A stretch of DNA of 7,344 nt. Origin: a virus. Taxonomy: Duplodnaviria > Heunggongvirae > Uroviricota > Caudoviricetes. The position numbers were made by a program, and so were the translations under genes. Under the pieces are notes generated by a model that made no database searches, was not told where the DNA came from, and saw nothing but the letters and a program-made list of their open reading frames with translations. The first letter of the stretch is position 1; every line of letters starts with the position of its first letter. Positions 1-5,914 of the stretch are shown one piece after another. The DNA lies in IMG/VR virus record IMGVR_UViG_2703718843_000005; one strand, given 5' to 3'.

Positions 1-184
1 GATTCCCGGGGCGGTTCAGTTCTTTATTAGTGGAAGAATCCGGACCGTACTTCTTTATCCAGGCATAAAGGCTGTGGGTGGTGATATCGAGACGTGTTGC
101 AACGCTGGCAACAGAATAACCGCGATCAACAACCTGTTTGACTGCTTCAGTTTTAAACTCTTCGGGATAACGCTTACCGCTCAT
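1..184 (-). CDS. IS3-family transposase OrfA, N-terminal fragment (helix-turn-helix region); partial and possibly interrupted after codon 55
   Basis: Minus-strand ATG at 184-182 translates to MSGKRYPEEFKTEAVKQVVDRGYSVASVATRLDITTHSLYAWIKKYGPDSSTNKE..., which I recognise as an IS3-family OrfA N-terminus. No stop inside the window, so it is absent from the ORF track. Confidence 0.6.
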   Translation of the reverse strand, partial: MSGKRYPEEFKTEAVKQVVDRGYSVASVATRLDITTHSLYAWIKKYGPDSSTNKELNRPGN

Positions 185-247
185 GGGCACCTCTCTTTAA
201 GCCATCTTAAATGACTCTGAGGTGTCTGTTAAACCCGTGGCGATTCA
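1..247 (-). mobile_element. IS3-family insertion sequence terminal portion (partial, runs off the left edge); element end at nt 247, with a second IS3-type terminus-like sequence at nt 1-18
   Basis: Read on the - strand from 247: TGAATCGCCACGGGTTTAAC..., a TG-initiated IS3-type terminal repeat, followed 64 nt later by an orfA-like start. Reverse complement of nt 1-18 is TGAACCGCCCCGGGAATC, resembling the canonical IS3-family terminus as I recall it. Confidence 0.6.
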
Positions 248-577
248 GTTTAAATCTGCATTCAGTCTGTCATTGGTATTTGCTTTCGCCGCTACGTTGC
301 AGAAAAGCTGACTGGGGTAGATGAAGTAGCCTTTAGTTTTGATGGCATCGTCTTTAATGTCATCAGTAATTACGCTGTCATCCAGTTTCGCATAACAGAT
401 ACTGTCATCACCGGCTTCAATATAGCTGGAAAAATTTTCGCTGATAAAACGGTAGAAAAGTGCGCCCAGAACGTATTGCTTAAAATCCCATCCATCGACC
501 GAACCCCTGACATCGTTAGCAATTTGCCAGATTTGACGATGAAGCTCTGCACGTTGTTGAATACTTGTCATTTTCAT
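245..577 (-). pseudogene. hsdM: Type I restriction-modification methyltransferase HsdM (EcoR124-like, type IC), N-terminal 110 codons only, truncated by the IS insertion
   Basis: Translation MKMTSIQQRAELHRQIWQIANDVRGSVDGWDFKQYVLGALFYRFISENF... matches my recollection of the EcoR124-family HsdM N-terminus. Full HsdM is over 500 aa; here the stop (TGA, nt 247-245 on the - strand) is supplied by the first three bases of the IS terminus. The SAM-binding and catalytic motifs are absent. Confidence 0.75.
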
Positions 578-716
578 CCACTTATTTCAGGCTTATGTAA
601 TTGGATGTGATTCTACAGCAACTTGGATGCTTTAGCAGTTCGGACATTAGGCTACGAATGACCTGCCTAGAGGTTTGTTAAGCCGCAAAGTGCTGGTGCT
701 TTATGCCTGTGAAGTT

Positions 717-747
717 TATAATTGTGTACACATAACGAGTACACGAG
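717..747 (+). promoter_or_regulatory. phd-doc promoter -10 element and Phd/Doc autoregulatory operator (two palindromic sites)
   Basis: TATAAT at 717-722, immediately followed by the perfect palindrome GTGTACAC (724-731) and a second GTAC-centred imperfect palindrome CGAGTACACG (736-745), directly upstream of the phd RBS (GAGG) and ATG at 754. Two adjacent palindromes is the known architecture of the P1 phd operator. Confidence 0.6.
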
Positions 748-753
748 GTGTTT

Positions 754-975
754 ATGCAATCCATTAACTTCCGTACCGCGCGCGGCAACCTTTCTGAAGT
801 GCTCAACAATGTTGAAGCCGGGGAAGAGGTTGAAATCACCCGCAGAGGCCGTGAGCCAGCAGTAATTGTCAGCAAGGCTACTTTCGAAGCCTACAAAAAA
901 GCGGCGCTGGATGCTGAATTTGCATCCCTGTTTGACACCCTGGACTCCACCAACAAGGAACTGGTTAACCGATAA
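754..975 (+). CDS. phd: Phd antitoxin (prevent-host-death), 73 aa
   Basis: [73 protein letters not shown] matches P1 Phd as I recall it. ATG at 754 is preferred over the ORF-track GTG at 748 because GAGG sits at correct spacing. Stop overlaps the doc start (TAATG). Confidence 0.93.
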
Positions 976-1355
976 TGAGGCATATATCACCGGAAGAACT
1001 TATTGCGCTTCATGATGCGAATATAAGCCGCTACGGCGGCCTGCCGGGAATGTCAGATCCGGGCAGGGCAGAGGCCATTATCGGGAGAGTCCAGGCCAGA
1101 GTTGTGTACGAAGAGATCACCGACCTTTTCGAAGTCTCCGCCACCTACCTGGTGGCTACTGCGAGAGGGCATATATTCAATGATGCCAATAAGCGTACCG
1201 CGCTAAACAGTGCGCTGTTATTTCTACGCCGTAACGGGGTGCAGGTATTTGATTCACCTGAACTGGCAGACCTTACTGTAGGCGCTGCGACCGGAGAGAT
1301 ATCTGTATCTTCTGTCGCCGACACGTTACGTAGATTGTATGGTTCCGCGGAGTAG
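975..1355 (+). CDS. doc: Doc toxin (death-on-curing; Fic-fold kinase that phosphorylates EF-Tu), 126 aa
   Basis: 126-aa product with the Fic-type motif HIFNDANKR (encoded about nt 1170-1200), located immediately downstream of phd with a 1-nt start/stop overlap; matches P1 Doc from memory. Confidence 0.93.
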
Positions 1356-1359
1356 ATTA

Positions 1360-1539
1360 ATGGCACGTAAATACAACAAATTGTCCCGTGAAGCGTTAAA
1401 GATGCTTCTTGATGGCGTGAGTCGCCGCGAGGTAAAGCAATACCTGGTTGGTAAGCAAATTGGAGCCAGGACTGCTATTGCTGTGTTATGCCGTCAGGAA
1501 ATGGTTGTGCTTAAACAGAGAATGCCGGGCAGCAGATAA
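1360..1539 (+). CDS. pdcA: PdcA (post-doc protein A), small basic protein of unknown function, about 59 aa
   Basis: Position directly after doc as in P1. The ORF track starts at 1339, overlapping the doc 3-prime end; ATG at 1360 is preferred because GGAG at 1347-1350 gives proper RBS spacing. The start is uncertain. Confidence 0.6.
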   Translation: MARKYNKLSREALKMLLDGVSRREVKQYLVGKQIGARTAIAVLCRQEMVVLKQRMPGSR

Positions 1540-1566
1540 AGCCCAATCAGTGATGAAAGGTGTGAT

Positions 1567-2610
1567 GTGAAAGCCGTAATTACTCCCTTTGTACAAAAAG
1601 AGCTTGGCGTCGCCACATTCAAAGTGGATCAGGAAGTCAGAAAACTGGTGGAGGCTGGCCGTAAATTTATTATGGAGCCGGTGCCGCGTGAGTTAATCGA
1701 GCACATGGACGACGGCCTCGTTGTTTCCGAGCAAACTATGGCAACAAATGAGGCGTTGCAGCCGTTTTTTAACAGCGATGAACTGTTTCGCCGTATTGGT
1801 GGAATTGACGCGCTGGTGGCGTGGTTGCGCAGGAAAGAGGGGCAATGCCAGGCCGCAGATCGTAGCTGGTGTGACAACCATATTGTCCACGCAGAACGAG
1901 ACAATAGCGCGGTGTTGTTGTGCTGGCATCACGATAACCATTACCGGATGCGTGGTTTTAATGAGCTGAAAGAAACGCTGCATAATAATCGCGTTAACTG
2001 GATACTGGATGTCGCCCGTCAGGAAATGGGGCTTTCAGATGGCCATGATTTAAGTATTCAGGAACTGTGCTGGTGGGCTTTCATGCGCGACATGATGCAC
2101 CTGATGCCGGAAGAAGTCTGCCGTATATCAATAAATAAGATTAAGGCTGCAACGCAGGATAGCGGACCTATGAAAGAGGCGGATATTCGCCCGTATGACG
2201 ATCGCGCTACAGCATATGTTCAGATGATGGAAGAACGCGCCGCGCCGATGCGTGCAAAAGTATGCCCTGTGGATGTTGACTCCGACCCTGGCATGGCGCA
2301 TTTCAAAATACCAAAACTGCAATCGCTAAAATTACCCGAGTACATGGACTTTGTTGCTTCCCGTCCGTGCTGTGGATGTGGAGCTGCGGGAGCTGGCGCT
2401 CGCATTACGCCTTATATCGTTCGTCATAGTCGATTATGCGCGCATGACATTTACGCAATTCCTCTGTGCCAGTCATGCCAGCGTGATATTGAGCGTGACC
2501 GCGATAATTGGGAGAAGACGCACGGCAGGCTGGCGATGCATCAACGATTGTTCTTTGATTACGCGCTTGGAGTCGGCGTTATCACAAGTCACTCGTCGAG
2601 CGTTAGATAA
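1567..2610 (+). CDS. pdcB: PdcB (post-doc protein B), 347 aa, function unknown; contains two Cys/His-rich clusters
   Basis: GTG start at 1567 with AAAGG RBS upstream. Long uninterrupted ORF in the P1 pdcB position. Cys/His clusters are encoded at about nt 1846-1941 and 2368-2478. Confidence 0.7.
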
Positions 2611-2611
2611 A

Positions 2612-2628
2612 GTTGCTCTAATGTATTG
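2612..2628 (+). promoter_or_regulatory. C1 repressor operator-like site upstream of lpa
   Basis: GTTGCTCTAATGTATTG matches the asymmetric P1 C1 operator consensus ATTGCTCTAATAAATTT at 13 of 17 positions, with a perfect 10-bp core TTGCTCTAAT. Lpa expression is known to be C1-repressed in P1. Confidence 0.6.
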
Positions 2629-2656
2629 CTATTTCTTTAATCGATGGTATTATATT
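2627..2656 (+). promoter_or_regulatory. Candidate sigma70 promoter for lpa overlapping the C1 operator
   Basis: TTGCTA (2627-2632) and a TATTAT/TATATT-rich -10 region (2648-2656), about 45 bp upstream of the lpa start; the spacer length is approximate. Confidence 0.4.
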
Positions 2657-2698
2657 CGTCGTTGATTAGTTGACATGGGCTAATCAGTAGGTGACAGG

Positions 2699-3151
2699 AT
2701 GTTACTTAACTGGCAGGGACGCCACTTCATGGAAATAAATCACTCACGAATTACATCGTATGAGATTGCGGATTACATGATCCGCACTAAATCTCTTCTA
2801 TCAGCGAAAGAACTCGCAGCAATCCTTGAAAAGGAATACCCGCATCTGGATGTCGATAAGCGCGATGTTTATCTGCGCTTAAAGGCTATCGCTGTGTCTA
2901 AGTATTCGTCTGTTTTGATTGATGACAGTACACGCCCACGTAGATTTCAGATCCACTCTCTGAATCCTGAATTCTTTCGCCGTAGCCGCGCTCCGCGCCG
3001 GTTTGATGAAAAACTCCAGAACGAACTCTATATGACGCAGGACGAAAAGGAACGCCGGGAGCACCAGCCTTGGGTAATGGCGCGTCAACTTTTCAATAAG
3101 GTGGCCCGTCAGCACCGTCATTACGGTAATGCCACATCCGCACGTATCTGA
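2699..3151 (+). CDS. lpa: Lpa, late promoter activator (P1 gene 10 product), 150 aa
   Basis: 150-aa ORF in the canonical position between pdcB and pacA; AGGTGA RBS 7 nt upstream of ATG 2699; preceded by a C1 operator-like site. Confidence 0.85.
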   Translation: MLLNWQGRHFMEINHSRITSYEIADYMIRTKSLLSAKELAAILEKEYPHLDVDKRDVYLRLKAIAVSKYSSVLIDDSTRPRRFQIHSLNPEFFRRSRAPRRFDEKLQNELYMTQDEKERREHQPWVMARQLFNKVARQHRHYGNATSARI

Positions 3152-3161
3152 TTGATTGCTT

Positions 3162-3179
3162 GCCCGTTCCGGGCCTTTT
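3162..3179 (+). terminator. Possible weak intrinsic terminator after lpa
   Basis: GCCCG-TTC-CGGGC hairpin (5-bp GC stem, 3-nt loop) followed by CTTTT, 11 nt after the lpa stop. Confidence 0.35.
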
Positions 3180-3185
3180 GACATG

Positions 3186-3220
3186 TGACTTTCGTTACCC
3201 TCGCGTCAAAAAGAGTTTTT
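3186..3220 (+). promoter_or_regulatory. Candidate Lpa-dependent late promoter for pacA-pacB
   Basis: TTGACATGTGAC (contains the palindrome ACATGT) followed by a TANNNT-type element TACCCT (3205-3210) and the inverted pair TTTTGAC...GTCAAAA (3187-3193 / 3214-3220), 17-50 bp upstream of the pacA start. P1 late promoters are known to pair a -10 element with an upstream inverted repeat in place of a -35; I cannot recall the exact consensus. Confidence 0.35.
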
Positions 3221-3236
3221 ACGAAAGGAAGCATAA

Positions 3237-4430
3237 GTGACCTGGGACGATCACAAGAAGAATTTTGCTCGCCTGGCGCGAGATGGTGGTTACACCATCG
3301 CACAGTATGCCGCCGAGTTTAATCTTAACCCTAATACCGCACGTCGTTATCTCCGTGCCTTCAAAGAAGACACCAGGACAGCGGACAGCCGCAAGCCAAA
3401 TAAGCCTGTCAGGAAACCACTAAAAAGCATGATCATTGATCACGCTAATGATCAACGTGCAGGTGATCACATTGCGGCTGAAATAGCGGAAAAACAAAGA
3501 GTTAATGCCGTTGTCAGTGCCGCAGTCGAGAATGCGAAGCGCCAAAATAAGCGCATAAATGATCGTTCAGATGATCATGACGTGATCACCCGCGCCCACC
3601 TGACCTTACGTGATCGCCTGGAACGCGACACCCTGGATGATGATGGTGAACGCTTTGAATTCGAAGCTGGCGATTACCTGATAGATAACGTTGAAGCGCG
3701 GAAGGCCGCGCGCGCTATGTTGCGTCGGTCCGGGGCCGATGTTCTGGAAACCACTCTTCTGGAAAAGTCTCTTTCTCATCTCCTTATGCTGGAGAACGCC
3801 AGGGATACGTGTATTCGCTTGGTGCAGGAAATGCGCGATCAGCAAAAAGACGATGATGAAGGTACTCCGCCTGAATACCGTATCGCGAGCATGCTAAACA
3901 GCTGTTCCGCGCAGATAAGCAGCCTGATCAACACCATTTACAGCATCCGGAATAACTATCGAAAAGAAAGCCGGGAGGCGGAAAAGCACGCTTTATCTAT
4001 GGGGCAAGCTGGCATTGTTAAGCTGGCATACGAACGAAAGCGTGAAAATAACTGGTCAGTGCTGGAAGCGGCTGAATTCATCGAGGCGCATGGAGGAAAA
4101 GTGCCGCCCCTGATGCTGGAGCAAATCAAAGCCGATCTGCGTGCTCCTAAGACCAATACCGATGATGAGGAAAACCAAACAGCATCTGGCGCTCCATCAC
4201 TTGAAGATCTGGATAAAATCGCGCGAGAACGGGCCGCCAGCCGCCGCGCTGATGCGGCATTGTGGATTGAGCATCGTAGAGAAGAAATTGCCGATATCGT
4301 CGATACAGGTGGTTATGGTGATGTCGATGCGGAAGGCATATCAAACGAAGCATGGCTTGAACAGGATCTGGACGAAGACGAGGAGGAAGACGAAGAAGTT
4401 ACCCGCAAACTGTACGGGGATGATGATTAA
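3237..4430 (+). CDS. pacA: PacA, terminase small (pac-recognition) subunit, 397 aa
   Basis: GTG start with AAAGGA RBS; 397 aa; contains the hexamer-repeat pac site internally; strongly acidic C-terminal tail ([11 protein letters not shown]); stop overlaps the pacB start (TAATG). Confidence 0.9.
3430..3588 (+). other. pac site: phage P1-type packaging cleavage site with Dam-methylatable hexamer repeats
   Basis: Four TGATCA hexamers at 3430-3435, 3437-3442, 3449-3454 and 3464-3469, then three TGATC(G/A) hexamers at 3560-3565, 3572-3577 and 3583-3588 (a further TGATCG at 3611-3616). Each contains GATC. This is the known 4 + 3 arrangement of P1 pac inside pacA. Confidence 0.85.
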
Positions 4431-5914
4431 TGGCCAGAAGTTGCGTAACGGACCCACGTTGGCGCGAGCTGGTGGCGCTATATCGTTATGACTGGATTGC
4501 GGCCGCTGATGTGTTGTTTGGGAAGACACCAACCTGGCAGCAGGATGAGATCATTGAGTCCACGCAGCAGGACGGCAGTTGGACAAGTGTGACCTCCGGC
4601 CATGGTACTGGTAAATCGGATATGACGAGTATCATTGCAATACTCTTCATCATGTTTTTCCCCGGCGCTCGCGTCATTCTGGTCGCTAACAAAAGACAGC
4701 AAGTCCTTGATGGTATTTTCAAATACATAAAGAGCAATTGGGCTACTGCTGTTAGCAGATTCCCGTGGTTGTCGAAGTATTTCATTCTTACAGAAACGTC
4801 TTTTTTTGAGGTGACTGGCAAGGGTGTTTGGACAATATTGATAAAGTCCTGTCGCCCCGGAAATGAGGAGGCGTTGGCTGGTGAACACGCCGATCATCTC
4901 TTGTATATCATCGACGAAGCGTCGGGTGTGAGTGATAAAGCATTCAGTGTGATAACAGGTGCGCTGACCGGTAAGGATAACCGTATTCTGCTTCTTTCCC
5001 AGCCTACGCGACCTTCAGGCTATTTCTACGATTCACACCACAGACTAGCTATTCGCCCGGGAAATCCTGATGGATTGTTTACTGCGATAATACTGAATAG
5101 TGAAGAATCTCCGCTTGTAGATGCAAAATTTATACGAGCAAAACTTGCGGAGTATGGCGGTCGTGATAACCCCATGTACATGATCAAAGTACGTGGTGAA
5201 TTTCCCAAATCTCAAGATGGCTTTCTTCTTGGTCGTGATGAGGTTGAGCGGGCGACGCGGCGAAAGGTCAAGATTGCCAAAGGATGGGGCTGGGTTGCAT
5301 GTGTTGACGTTGCTGGTGGCACAGGACGAGATAAGTCCGTTATTAATATCATGATGGTGTCCGGCCAGCGAAATAAACGCCGTGTAATCAACTATCGTAT
5401 GCTGGAATACACAGACGTTACAGAAACGCAGTTAGCCGCCAAGATTTTCGCAGAATGTAACCCAGAACGGTTCCCGAACATAACCATAGCTATTGATGGC
5501 GATGGCTTGGGGAAATCGACGGCTGATCTAATGTACGAACGCTATGGCATTACCGTCCAGCGTATCCGCTGGGGTAAAAAGATGCACAGCCGTGAAGATA
5601 AAAGCCTTTATTTCGATATGCGCGCTTTCGCGAATATTCAGGCGGCAGAAGCTGTAAAATCAGGGCGTATGAGGCTTGATAAGGGGGCTGCGACTATAGA
5701 GGAAGCATCAAAGATACCGGTAGGGATAAATTCCGCAGGTCAATGGAAGGTGATGTCAAAGGAAGATATGAAGAAAAAACTCAACCTGCACTCACCGGAC
5801 CATTGGGATACATATTGTTTCGCTATGTTGGCGAACTATGTTCCCCAAGATGAAGTGCTTAGCGTCGAAGACGAAGCGCAGGTTGATGAAGCTCTGGCAT
5901 GGCTTAATGAATAA
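4430..5914 (+). CDS. pacB: PacB, terminase large subunit (ATPase/nuclease), 494 aa
   Basis: 494-aa ORF with Walker A-like SGHGTGKS (about nt 4592-4615) and Walker B-like [10 protein letters not shown]; translationally coupled to pacA. Confidence 0.9.

Follow-up and report, generated by a model that had tools for sequence, protein, structure and literature searches.

The ORF at positions 1339-1539, directly downstream of the doc toxin gene, corresponds to pdcA of phage P1, a gene already annotated, and the evidence from distant homologs gives us high confidence that pdcA is a real, selected gene. Our preferred reading, which we judge reasonably probable, is that PdcA acts as an autonomous small accessory protein, binding nucleic acid, and that in P1-type elements its translation is coupled to the upstream ORF.

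The window analyzed here is the whole stretch of 7,344 nucleotides of the IMG/VR record IMGVR_UViG_2703718843_000005. Between positions 700 and 2700 its sequence shares 97-98% identity with phages P1 and P7 and related phage-plasmids, by which we identify it as a P1-like phage-plasmid. The plus strand carries, in this order, phd, doc, pdcA, pdcB, lpa, pacA and pacB, while c1 and coi lie on the minus strand. The Pphd promoter was placed by means of a gap-free alignment, in which window positions 678-4200 match positions 1479-5001 of the related record L001. The features of the region are as follows:

694-722, plus strand: Pphd promoter, by homology to the P1 annotation, with a -10 element TATAAT at 717-722.
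754-975, plus strand: phd antitoxin gene (Pfam PhdYeFM_antitox, E = 3e-13; P1 annotation).
975-1355, plus strand: doc toxin gene (Pfam Fic/DOC; P1 annotation), the 3' end of which contains the Shine-Dalgarno (SD) sequence of pdcA.
1339-1359, plus strand: upstream extension MVPRSRL, in frame with pdcA and part of the 66-aa P1 and P7 annotations.
1349-1362, plus strand: junction GGAG-TAG-ATTA-ATG, a putative translational-coupling site made up of the SD, the doc stop codon (1353-1355), a 4-nt spacer and the pdcA start codon.
1360-1539, plus strand: pdcA coding sequence in its supported form of 59 aa (SD, PGAP, PHROG 3345, Yersinia N-termini).
1567-2610, plus strand: pdcB (DUF968; PHROG 96, labeled 'HNH endonuclease').

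The first gene of the transcription unit is phd, and its SD favors ATG 754 over GTG 748. The pdcA ORF fills the space between doc and pdcB, the latter starting 27 nt past the pdcA stop codon. In DNA, the pdcA region is 97% identical to P1, the record of which has carried pdcA since 2004 as a 66-aa product of "unknown protein function"; in P7 the same gene is named fdc. The finding thus concerns a known, uncharacterised gene. Its product matches PHROG 3345 over residues 1-59 of 59 (E = 5.8e-44) and is 93-97% identical to PGAP entries named 'PdcA protein', the identity to database PdcA proteins overall being 93-100%. The preliminary description had named the ORF as PdcA of a P1-type element, and the P1 and P7 annotations and the DNA identity agree with this.

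The longest reading frame extends from ATG 1339 to TAA 1537-1539 and encodes 66 aa, overlapping doc (975-1355) by 17 nt; its position and the overlap are as the preliminary description had claimed. ORF length by itself is weak evidence, as 76 ORFs in the window reach 30 aa or more and many of these overlie real genes in a wrong frame. An in-frame ATG at 1360 gives a 59-aa product, MARKYNKLSREALKMLLDGVSRREVKQYLVGKQIGARTAIAVLCRQEMVVLKQRMPGSR. Upstream of this codon, a GGAG at 1349-1352 lies 7 nt 5' of the ATG, within the last codons of doc, and the predicted duplex with the anti-SD has an energy of -6.1 kcal/mol, a value reached at 8.6% of the window positions. For ATG 1339 the energy is +0.3 kcal/mol, and an SD is absent. 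Both PGAP and PHROG 3345 have the 59-aa form. In addition, four of four Yersinia homologs (60-62 aa) align from the methionine at 1360, each with an SD of its own, and the MVPRSRL extension is without counterpart in them. In the P1-like contig L092, homology to the window begins ~20 nt before ATG 1360 and the ATG at 1339 is absent; that ATG is conserved elsewhere because it falls within doc. Together, the SD energies, the PGAP and PHROG forms, the Yersinia N-termini and L092 support the 59-aa form, and with high confidence we place the start of PdcA at ATG 1360 and not at 1339, in line with the earlier suggestion that 1360 is the better start. The MVPRSRL segment probably does not belong to the translated PdcA protein.

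When 5.8 billion proteins were searched with a word index, the only matches were nearly identical PdcA proteins of Escherichia and Salmonella. HMMER, run exhaustively on 1.84 billion representatives, returned the same PdcA set together with one true distant relative, P0103 from Yersinia mollaretii, at 43% identity. Two long HMMER matches, P0100 and P0102, were discarded as spurious, both being repetitive proteins. Follow-up searches added four homologs: P0104 from a sequencing-run assembly, P0105 from Y. enterocolitica, a copy from Y. aleksiciae, and the 66-aa protein L103 from a metagenome. The homologs are 34-49% identical to PdcA, yet their length stays within 59-66 aa. They have in common G19, R22, K26, R37 and the motif L-C-(K/R)-Q-E-M-V, and the invariant polar residues of the family are mostly basic.

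Within the Yersinia clade, dN/dS is 0.09-0.19 at a dS of 0.5-1.8, which provides firm evidence for a translated, constrained gene. In the P1 clade, the pairwise pN/pS of pdcA is 0.19 (phd 0.08, doc 0.07, pdcB 0.12). Of the remaining frames at pdcA, four give values of 0.84-1.63; the fifth, at 0.23, is an antisense frame that shares the pdcA wobble positions and is without an ORF. None of the 163 full-length P1-clade copies (58 haplotypes) carries a stop or frameshift, and databases hold rare pdcA variants with a frameshift or truncation. Counting distinct mutations in the P1 clade (16 synonymous, 26 nonsynonymous) did not separate the frames (Fisher p = 0.22 versus the off-frames; codon-position chi-square p = 0.61), so that the selection signal in the P1 clade is one weighted by frequency, which lineage structure could have inflated, and the coding conclusion rests on the Yersinia-clade dN/dS. 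No part of the window matched an Rfam RNA family.

Among plasmid records, 1251 contain a P1-type doc, and the doc-pdcA junction with a full pdcA is present in 1129, ~90% of about 1236 records. In complete E. coli genomes, pdcA is present in 1098 of 5426 (~20%), almost always plasmid-borne. The arrangement doc-pdcA-pdcB is seen in 145 of 164 P1-clade loci. Other arrangements are:

D6 and a D6-like Salmonella plasmid: phd-doc-pdcA without pdcB.
D6-like plasmid L100: phd-doc without pdcA.
L006: pdcA cut off after codon 25.
P1-like contig L092: pdcA-pdcB without phd-doc.
An IncFIA/IncR plasmid: phd-doc-pdcA next to a type I restriction-modification (R-M) locus.

The distribution of pdcA is thus patchy, the gene occurring without pdcB, occurring without phd-doc, or missing beside phd-doc, and its co-occurrence with phd-doc is not obligatory, as seen in L100, L006, L092, eight loci with an insertion, and the homologs.

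The neighbors of the distant homologs are varied. The Y. enterocolitica homolog lies in a prophage, between the lysis cassette and the terminase; its 239-aa neighbor is unrelated to PdcB, and a conserved pdcA-pdcB pair was rejected. The Y. mollaretii homolog is upstream of umuDC, one distant homolog is directly upstream of prlF-yhaV, the Y. aleksiciae homolog is near a YopH-like effector, and L103 lies between a LytS/LytTR pair (a two-component system) and glk, an ordinary chromosomal neighborhood. The Yersinia copies have a conserved upstream region, in L015 also with a terminator-like hairpin, and promoter scans upstream of these copies detected no consensus promoter on the plus strand. Two of the copies carry an upstream palindrome, TTATTGTC-N3-GACAATAA, which is not conserved in the other two. 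Since pdcA is found in elements that lack pdcB or phd-doc, and stands alone in Yersinia, a role dedicated to Doc or PdcB is unlikely, and with high confidence we regard PdcA as autonomous of Phd-Doc and PdcB. The preliminary description had proposed that PdcA could regulate pdcB or couple its expression to phd-doc; a role dedicated to pdcB or phd-doc is contradicted by the D6-type elements, L092, L100 and the unrelated neighbors of the homologs.

We examined the junction between pdcA and the ORF that precedes it. Throughout the P1 clade, a 4-nt spacer separates the stop codon of the preceding ORF from the pdcA ATG, and the junction is the same whether that ORF is doc, a 91-aa ORF or a 74-aa ORF. 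At eight loci the 91-aa ORF (PHROG 31462) is inserted between doc and pdcA, and its end duplicates the last doc codons (…LRRLYGSAE*), recreating GGAG-TAG-ATTA-ATG. In L092, the preceding ORF is 74 aa long and weakly similar to ribbon-helix-helix proteins; it ends in …GCGGAGTAA-ATTA-ATG, with the same frame and stop position. The chance of finding both in-frame junctions with other upstream ORFs is roughly 1 in 9. The conserved stop-SD-ATG junction makes translational coupling to whichever ORF precedes pdcA plausible and suggests that pdcA translation is coupled to the upstream ORF. Of the proposed coupling to phd-doc, translational coupling to any upstream ORF therefore stands as plausible, and a link specific to doc does not. 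As to transcription, Pphd is the only annotated promoter upstream of pdcA, the plus strand between Pphd and Plpa contains no other annotated or predicted promoter, and no terminator-like site was found from doc to pdcB. The lack of a terminator and of a promoter of its own, together with the 27-nt pdcA-pdcB spacer, fit a reading in which pdcA would be a distal cistron of the Pphd transcript.

PdcA, a protein of 6.8 kDa, contains 14 K+R versus 4 D+E and has a pI of 11.0, confirming the basic character noted before. Six family members have a pI of 11.0-11.5 and a net charge of +9 to +10 (+10 in five of the six). The AlphaFold2 model of PdcA (pLDDT 78.7, pTM 0.60) consists of three helices joined by connectors of 3-4 residues and including the invariant Gly19. 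A model of a Yersinia homolog, built from a more diverse alignment, has an equal layout (pLDDT 92.6, pTM 0.72). The predicted helices are:

1363-1410, plus strand: helix 1, residues 2-17 (AlphaFold2), with an equivalent in the Yersinia homolog model.
1423-1452, plus strand: helix 2, residues 22-31, following the invariant G19 and holding the invariant R22 and K26.
1462-1521, plus strand: helix 3, residues 35-54, holding the invariant R37 and L-C-(R/K)-Q-E-M-V.

This predicted layout is compatible with a helix-turn-helix (HTH) protein but also with many other three-helix bundles. That PdcA is a small HTH transcription factor, acting on a local operator to regulate pdcB or phd-doc, is in our view unlikely. 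The three short helices, the tight turns and the high positive charge would suit such a protein, and the stretch LLDGVSRREVKQYL, probably what the preliminary description saw as an HTH, has HTH-like spacing of Gly and Val. The segment L-L-D-G-V-S-R-R-E-V-K-Q-Y-L has the Gly/Val spacing of an HTH turn, G19 and R22 being invariant and V25 nearly so. Helices 2 and 3, however, offer a second possible HTH register, so such patterns prove little. The upstream palindrome of two Yersinia copies could be an autoregulatory operator, although it is missing from the other two. Weak Foldseek matches to HTH domains exist (SETMAR, TrpR-like, AlgU; TM 0.46-0.48). The HTH-containing matches (7s03, 3frw, 8z6g) have TM 0.45-0.48 and a probability of at most 0.12, and in searches of the PDB with two AlphaFold models the best E values were 2.9 and 3.9, none significant; E was never below 2.9 even though the PDB is rich in HTH proteins and one of the models has a pLDDT of 92.6. 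Pfam searches of five divergent members, at E up to 10, identified no HTH or other family, NCBIfam gave nothing above threshold for PdcA, and a sequence-profile search of the PDB returned nothing meaningful. An HTH fold, as claimed earlier, is thus unsupported in the Pfam, NCBIfam, PDB profile and Foldseek searches. Moreover, the occurrence of pdcA without pdcB or phd-doc and the unrelated neighbors of the homologs leave no conserved target for such a factor, and Phd and Doc themselves autoregulate Pphd. Other weak matches, inconsistent between members, were set aside: Abhydrolase_11, DraIII, and a transposase N-terminal domain, the one sub-threshold NCBIfam match of PdcA (E = 0.041, 13.9 bits versus a cut-off of 47). 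The best match in a BFVD fold search had E = 0.36 and was to uncharacterised proteins.

An alternative that does without nucleic-acid binding, namely that PdcA is a moron-type effector working by protein-protein contact, for example as a modulator of a host factor or of anti-defence, appears distinctly unlikely. The gene is small, dispensable and patchy, phage-plasmids, prophages and islands carry it in their accessory regions, where its neighbors include R-M, toxin-antitoxin (TA), SOS-mutagenesis and effector genes; its fold is without a known match, and it is found in about a fifth of complete E. coli genomes. Yet the net charge of +9 to +10 is kept across clades and is more typical of nucleic-acid binders, one homolog sits in an ordinary chromosomal neighborhood, and no PADLOC model matches PdcA, the PADLOC library consisting of defence and not anti-defence proteins.

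We regard as very doubtful that the addiction module has PdcA as its third component, made in step with Doc and modulating Doc, Phd or the target of Doc (EF-Tu/ribosome). Such a role would agree with the ~90% of P1-type-doc plasmids that carry pdcA directly downstream, with a start 4 nt past the doc stop and an SD inside doc, with the joint movement of the phd-doc-pdcA trio into D6-type elements and IncF plasmids, and with the distant homolog adjoining prlF-yhaV. The best PDB folds, which are non-significant, were of a small basic ribosomal protein, eL36 of eukaryotes, at TM 0.60-0.65; with an E of ~3 we treat this match as non-evidence. On the other hand, L100 has phd-doc but no pdcA, L006 has phd-doc together with a truncated pdcA, pdcA is found without phd-doc in L092 and in all Yersinia and metagenome homologs, and at the eight insertion loci another gene separates doc from pdcA. 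In addition, the P1 record notes a copy of the cassette on a conjugative plasmid that extends exactly as far as the final base of doc. Lehnherr and colleagues reportedly found in 1993 that cloned phd-doc alone is sufficient for addiction. A bolder version, in which PdcA founds a new, very basic family of ~60 residues and three helices with a fold unlike any solved structure, is made in P1-type plasmids in stoichiometry with Doc by termination-reinitiation, and acts on the translation apparatus or on Doc, is a long shot; were it true, phd-doc-pdcA would be a three-part addiction/defence module present in about one-fifth of E. coli strains.

Reports on pdcA are few. An in-frame pdcA deletion of P1 has been constructed and is viable, according to the supplement of PMC9024508, and pdcA is listed as nonessential, citing the deletion survey, in a study in which CRISPRi had no PAM at pdcA (PMC10695390). 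By these accounts pdcA is dispensable in P1. In the literature searched, pdcA appeared only in the latter study, on gene essentiality in lambda and P1 by CRISPRi, and in its preprint, and the searches found no functional study, no expression data and no addiction experiment with versus without pdcA; the match in a phage T1 paper was to 'pdCas9' and was discarded. It is barely credible that the ORF is non-functional, either a fortuitous frame between doc and pdcB or a region acting only as RNA: the viable deletion, the P1-clade mutation counts without significant synonymous bias and the rare frameshifted or truncated variants would allow it, but divergent homologs keep length, start and motifs under low dN/dS, the 163 P1-clade copies are intact, the AlphaFold model (pLDDT 92.6) is confident and Rfam gave no match.

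We return to PdcA as an autonomous accessory protein. In this scheme, pdcA is a genuine, dispensable accessory gene of P1-type phage-plasmids, and prophages and islands of Yersinia have it as a gene standing alone. Within P1-type elements it would be read as the distal cistron of a transcript from Pphd, and ATG 1360 would be used, probably by ribosomes arriving directly from termination on the preceding ORF, as the SD lies in the last codons of that ORF and the stop codon 4 nt before the ATG. The 59-residue protein of pI 11 is predicted to fold into three helices, would most likely bind DNA or RNA through a conserved basic surface formed by R22, K26 and R37, and may dimerize through its long third helix. 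We infer co-transcription from Pphd, translational coupling and nucleic-acid binding; the last is held with moderate to low confidence, on the basis of charge, size and the predicted helical fold, and no profile or structural match ties PdcA to any DNA- or RNA-binding family. The value of these results is mainly a tidier annotation and a defined small target for biochemistry, with no new mechanism: the start is fixed, the gene appears real and selected, distant standalone homologs were found, and a function specific to Doc or PdcB is made unlikely. The plasmids that carry pdcA in ~20% of complete E. coli genomes include IncF resistance plasmids.

Compared with known systems, PdcA resembles tri-helical HTH proteins (Cro/Xis-like, sigma-70 region 4-like) in size, in its three predicted helices with short turns, in a basic surface and in a Gly at the helix-helix turn; it differs from them in that profiles gave no match and structural comparisons none of significance, the TM to any HTH domain staying below 0.5. 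Like the distal cistrons of type II TA operons and of three-component TA systems, pdcA directly follows the toxin gene, which its SD overlaps, and it is co-inherited with phd-doc in most plasmids. Unlike in those systems, the co-occurrence is not obligatory in either direction, and homologs exist without a TA partner. P1 PdcA (AAQ14076), P7 Fdc and D6 orf112 are the same gene in the same place, directly 3' of doc. The P1 and P7 GenBank records give the 66-aa form from the ATG within doc, whereas the 59-aa form is favored here. In this window a truncated hsdM precedes phd, in contrast to humD in P1, and the D6-type copies have another C-terminal tail (65 aa) and are without pdcB. The homologs P0103, P0104, P0105, L099 and L103 (Y. 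mollaretii, Y. enterocolitica, Y. aleksiciae and two metagenome/SRA contigs) are uncharacterised proteins of 60-66 aa that resemble PdcA in length, pI (~11), three-helix prediction and motifs, but unlike P1 pdcA their genes are standalone, with an SD and upstream region of their own in place of coupling to an upstream ORF.

Recombination breakpoints concentrate at the two ends of pdcA, at window positions 1355/1356 and about 1541. The copy of phd-doc on a conjugative plasmid ends with the last base of doc, as noted in the P1 record, and in D6-type elements, related phage-plasmids, homology stops 2 nt past the pdcA stop codon. Breaks were also found inside pdcA, after codon 25 in the P1-clade locus L006 and after about codon 35 in the chromosomal E. 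coli copy P0091.

Analysis of the doc-pdcA boundary in the P1 clade revealed an inserted reading frame in some loci and replacement of phd-doc in another. The insert, represented by the L087 copy, is the following:

L087:2721-2996, a 91-amino-acid ORF (PHROG 31462) inserted between doc and pdcA

The same ORF occupies this position in L108, L116, L124, L147, L150, L160 and L170. Its last ~15 codons duplicate the 3' end of doc, and in the loci carrying the insert the C-terminus of doc itself is altered (…KLRELYGSKT). In L092, a 91-kb P1-like contig, phd-doc is absent at the site before pdcA-pdcB (1100-3200); in its place are an OmpH-like gene, a LuxR/GerE regulator and a 74-amino-acid ORF with weak RHH/NikA similarity, which is joined, with the frame kept, to the same SD-stop-ATG junction preceding pdcA-pdcB.

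With respect to the neighboring genes in the window, a mechanical ORF call places the phd start at GTG 748, whereas the annotated start is ATG 754. The Shine-Dalgarno pairing is strong for ATG 754 (-7.2 kcal/mol) and only -2.5 kcal/mol for GTG 748. The pdcB gene (1567-2610; DUF968) gives a full-length match (E = 1e-127) to PHROG 96, a group labeled HNH endonuclease; lpa and the packaging genes pacA/pacB lie just downstream. By CRISPRi, pdcB was nonessential (PMC10695390).

Among the distant homologs of pdcA, the conserved region upstream of the Yersinia copies holds a palindrome (L009:5950-5990; L099:2930-2970), whose sequence in Y. mollaretii is TTATTGTC-N3-GACAATAA, whereas Y. aleksiciae has TTATTGT-GG-ACAATAA and the remaining two Yersinia copies carry a degenerate form. 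This palindrome is a candidate operator. We also noticed that SOS-mutagenesis and toxin-antitoxin genes recur as neighbors of the family (L008, L013, L014, the window and P1). In Y. mollaretii (L008, L013) umuD/umuC is located directly 3' of the pdcA homolog, in L014 prlF-yhaV takes this position, and in P1 and D6 humD lies two genes upstream of pdcA. The sample is too small to distinguish such adjacency from the usual mix of accessory islands. A divergent 66-amino-acid member on a metagenome contig (L103:3983-4183) has glucokinase on one side and a paired LytS-type histidine kinase and LytTR regulator on the other; the site, which contains neither phage nor plasmid genes, is apparently an ordinary chromosomal location.

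Upstream of phd, the window carries a gene remnant:

Within 1-677, minus strand, 5' part of the type I restriction-modification gene hsdM, with its ATG at 577 and the frame closed at 245

The homology shared with P1-like plasmids that carry an intact hsd locus ends at position 242, window 1-241 has matches in >3000 plasmids, and in CP099133 the counterpart of 1-241 adjoins an IS3-family transposase; hence, hsdM appears to have been cut off by an insertion sequence. In this the window differs from P1, where humD is located upstream of phd instead.
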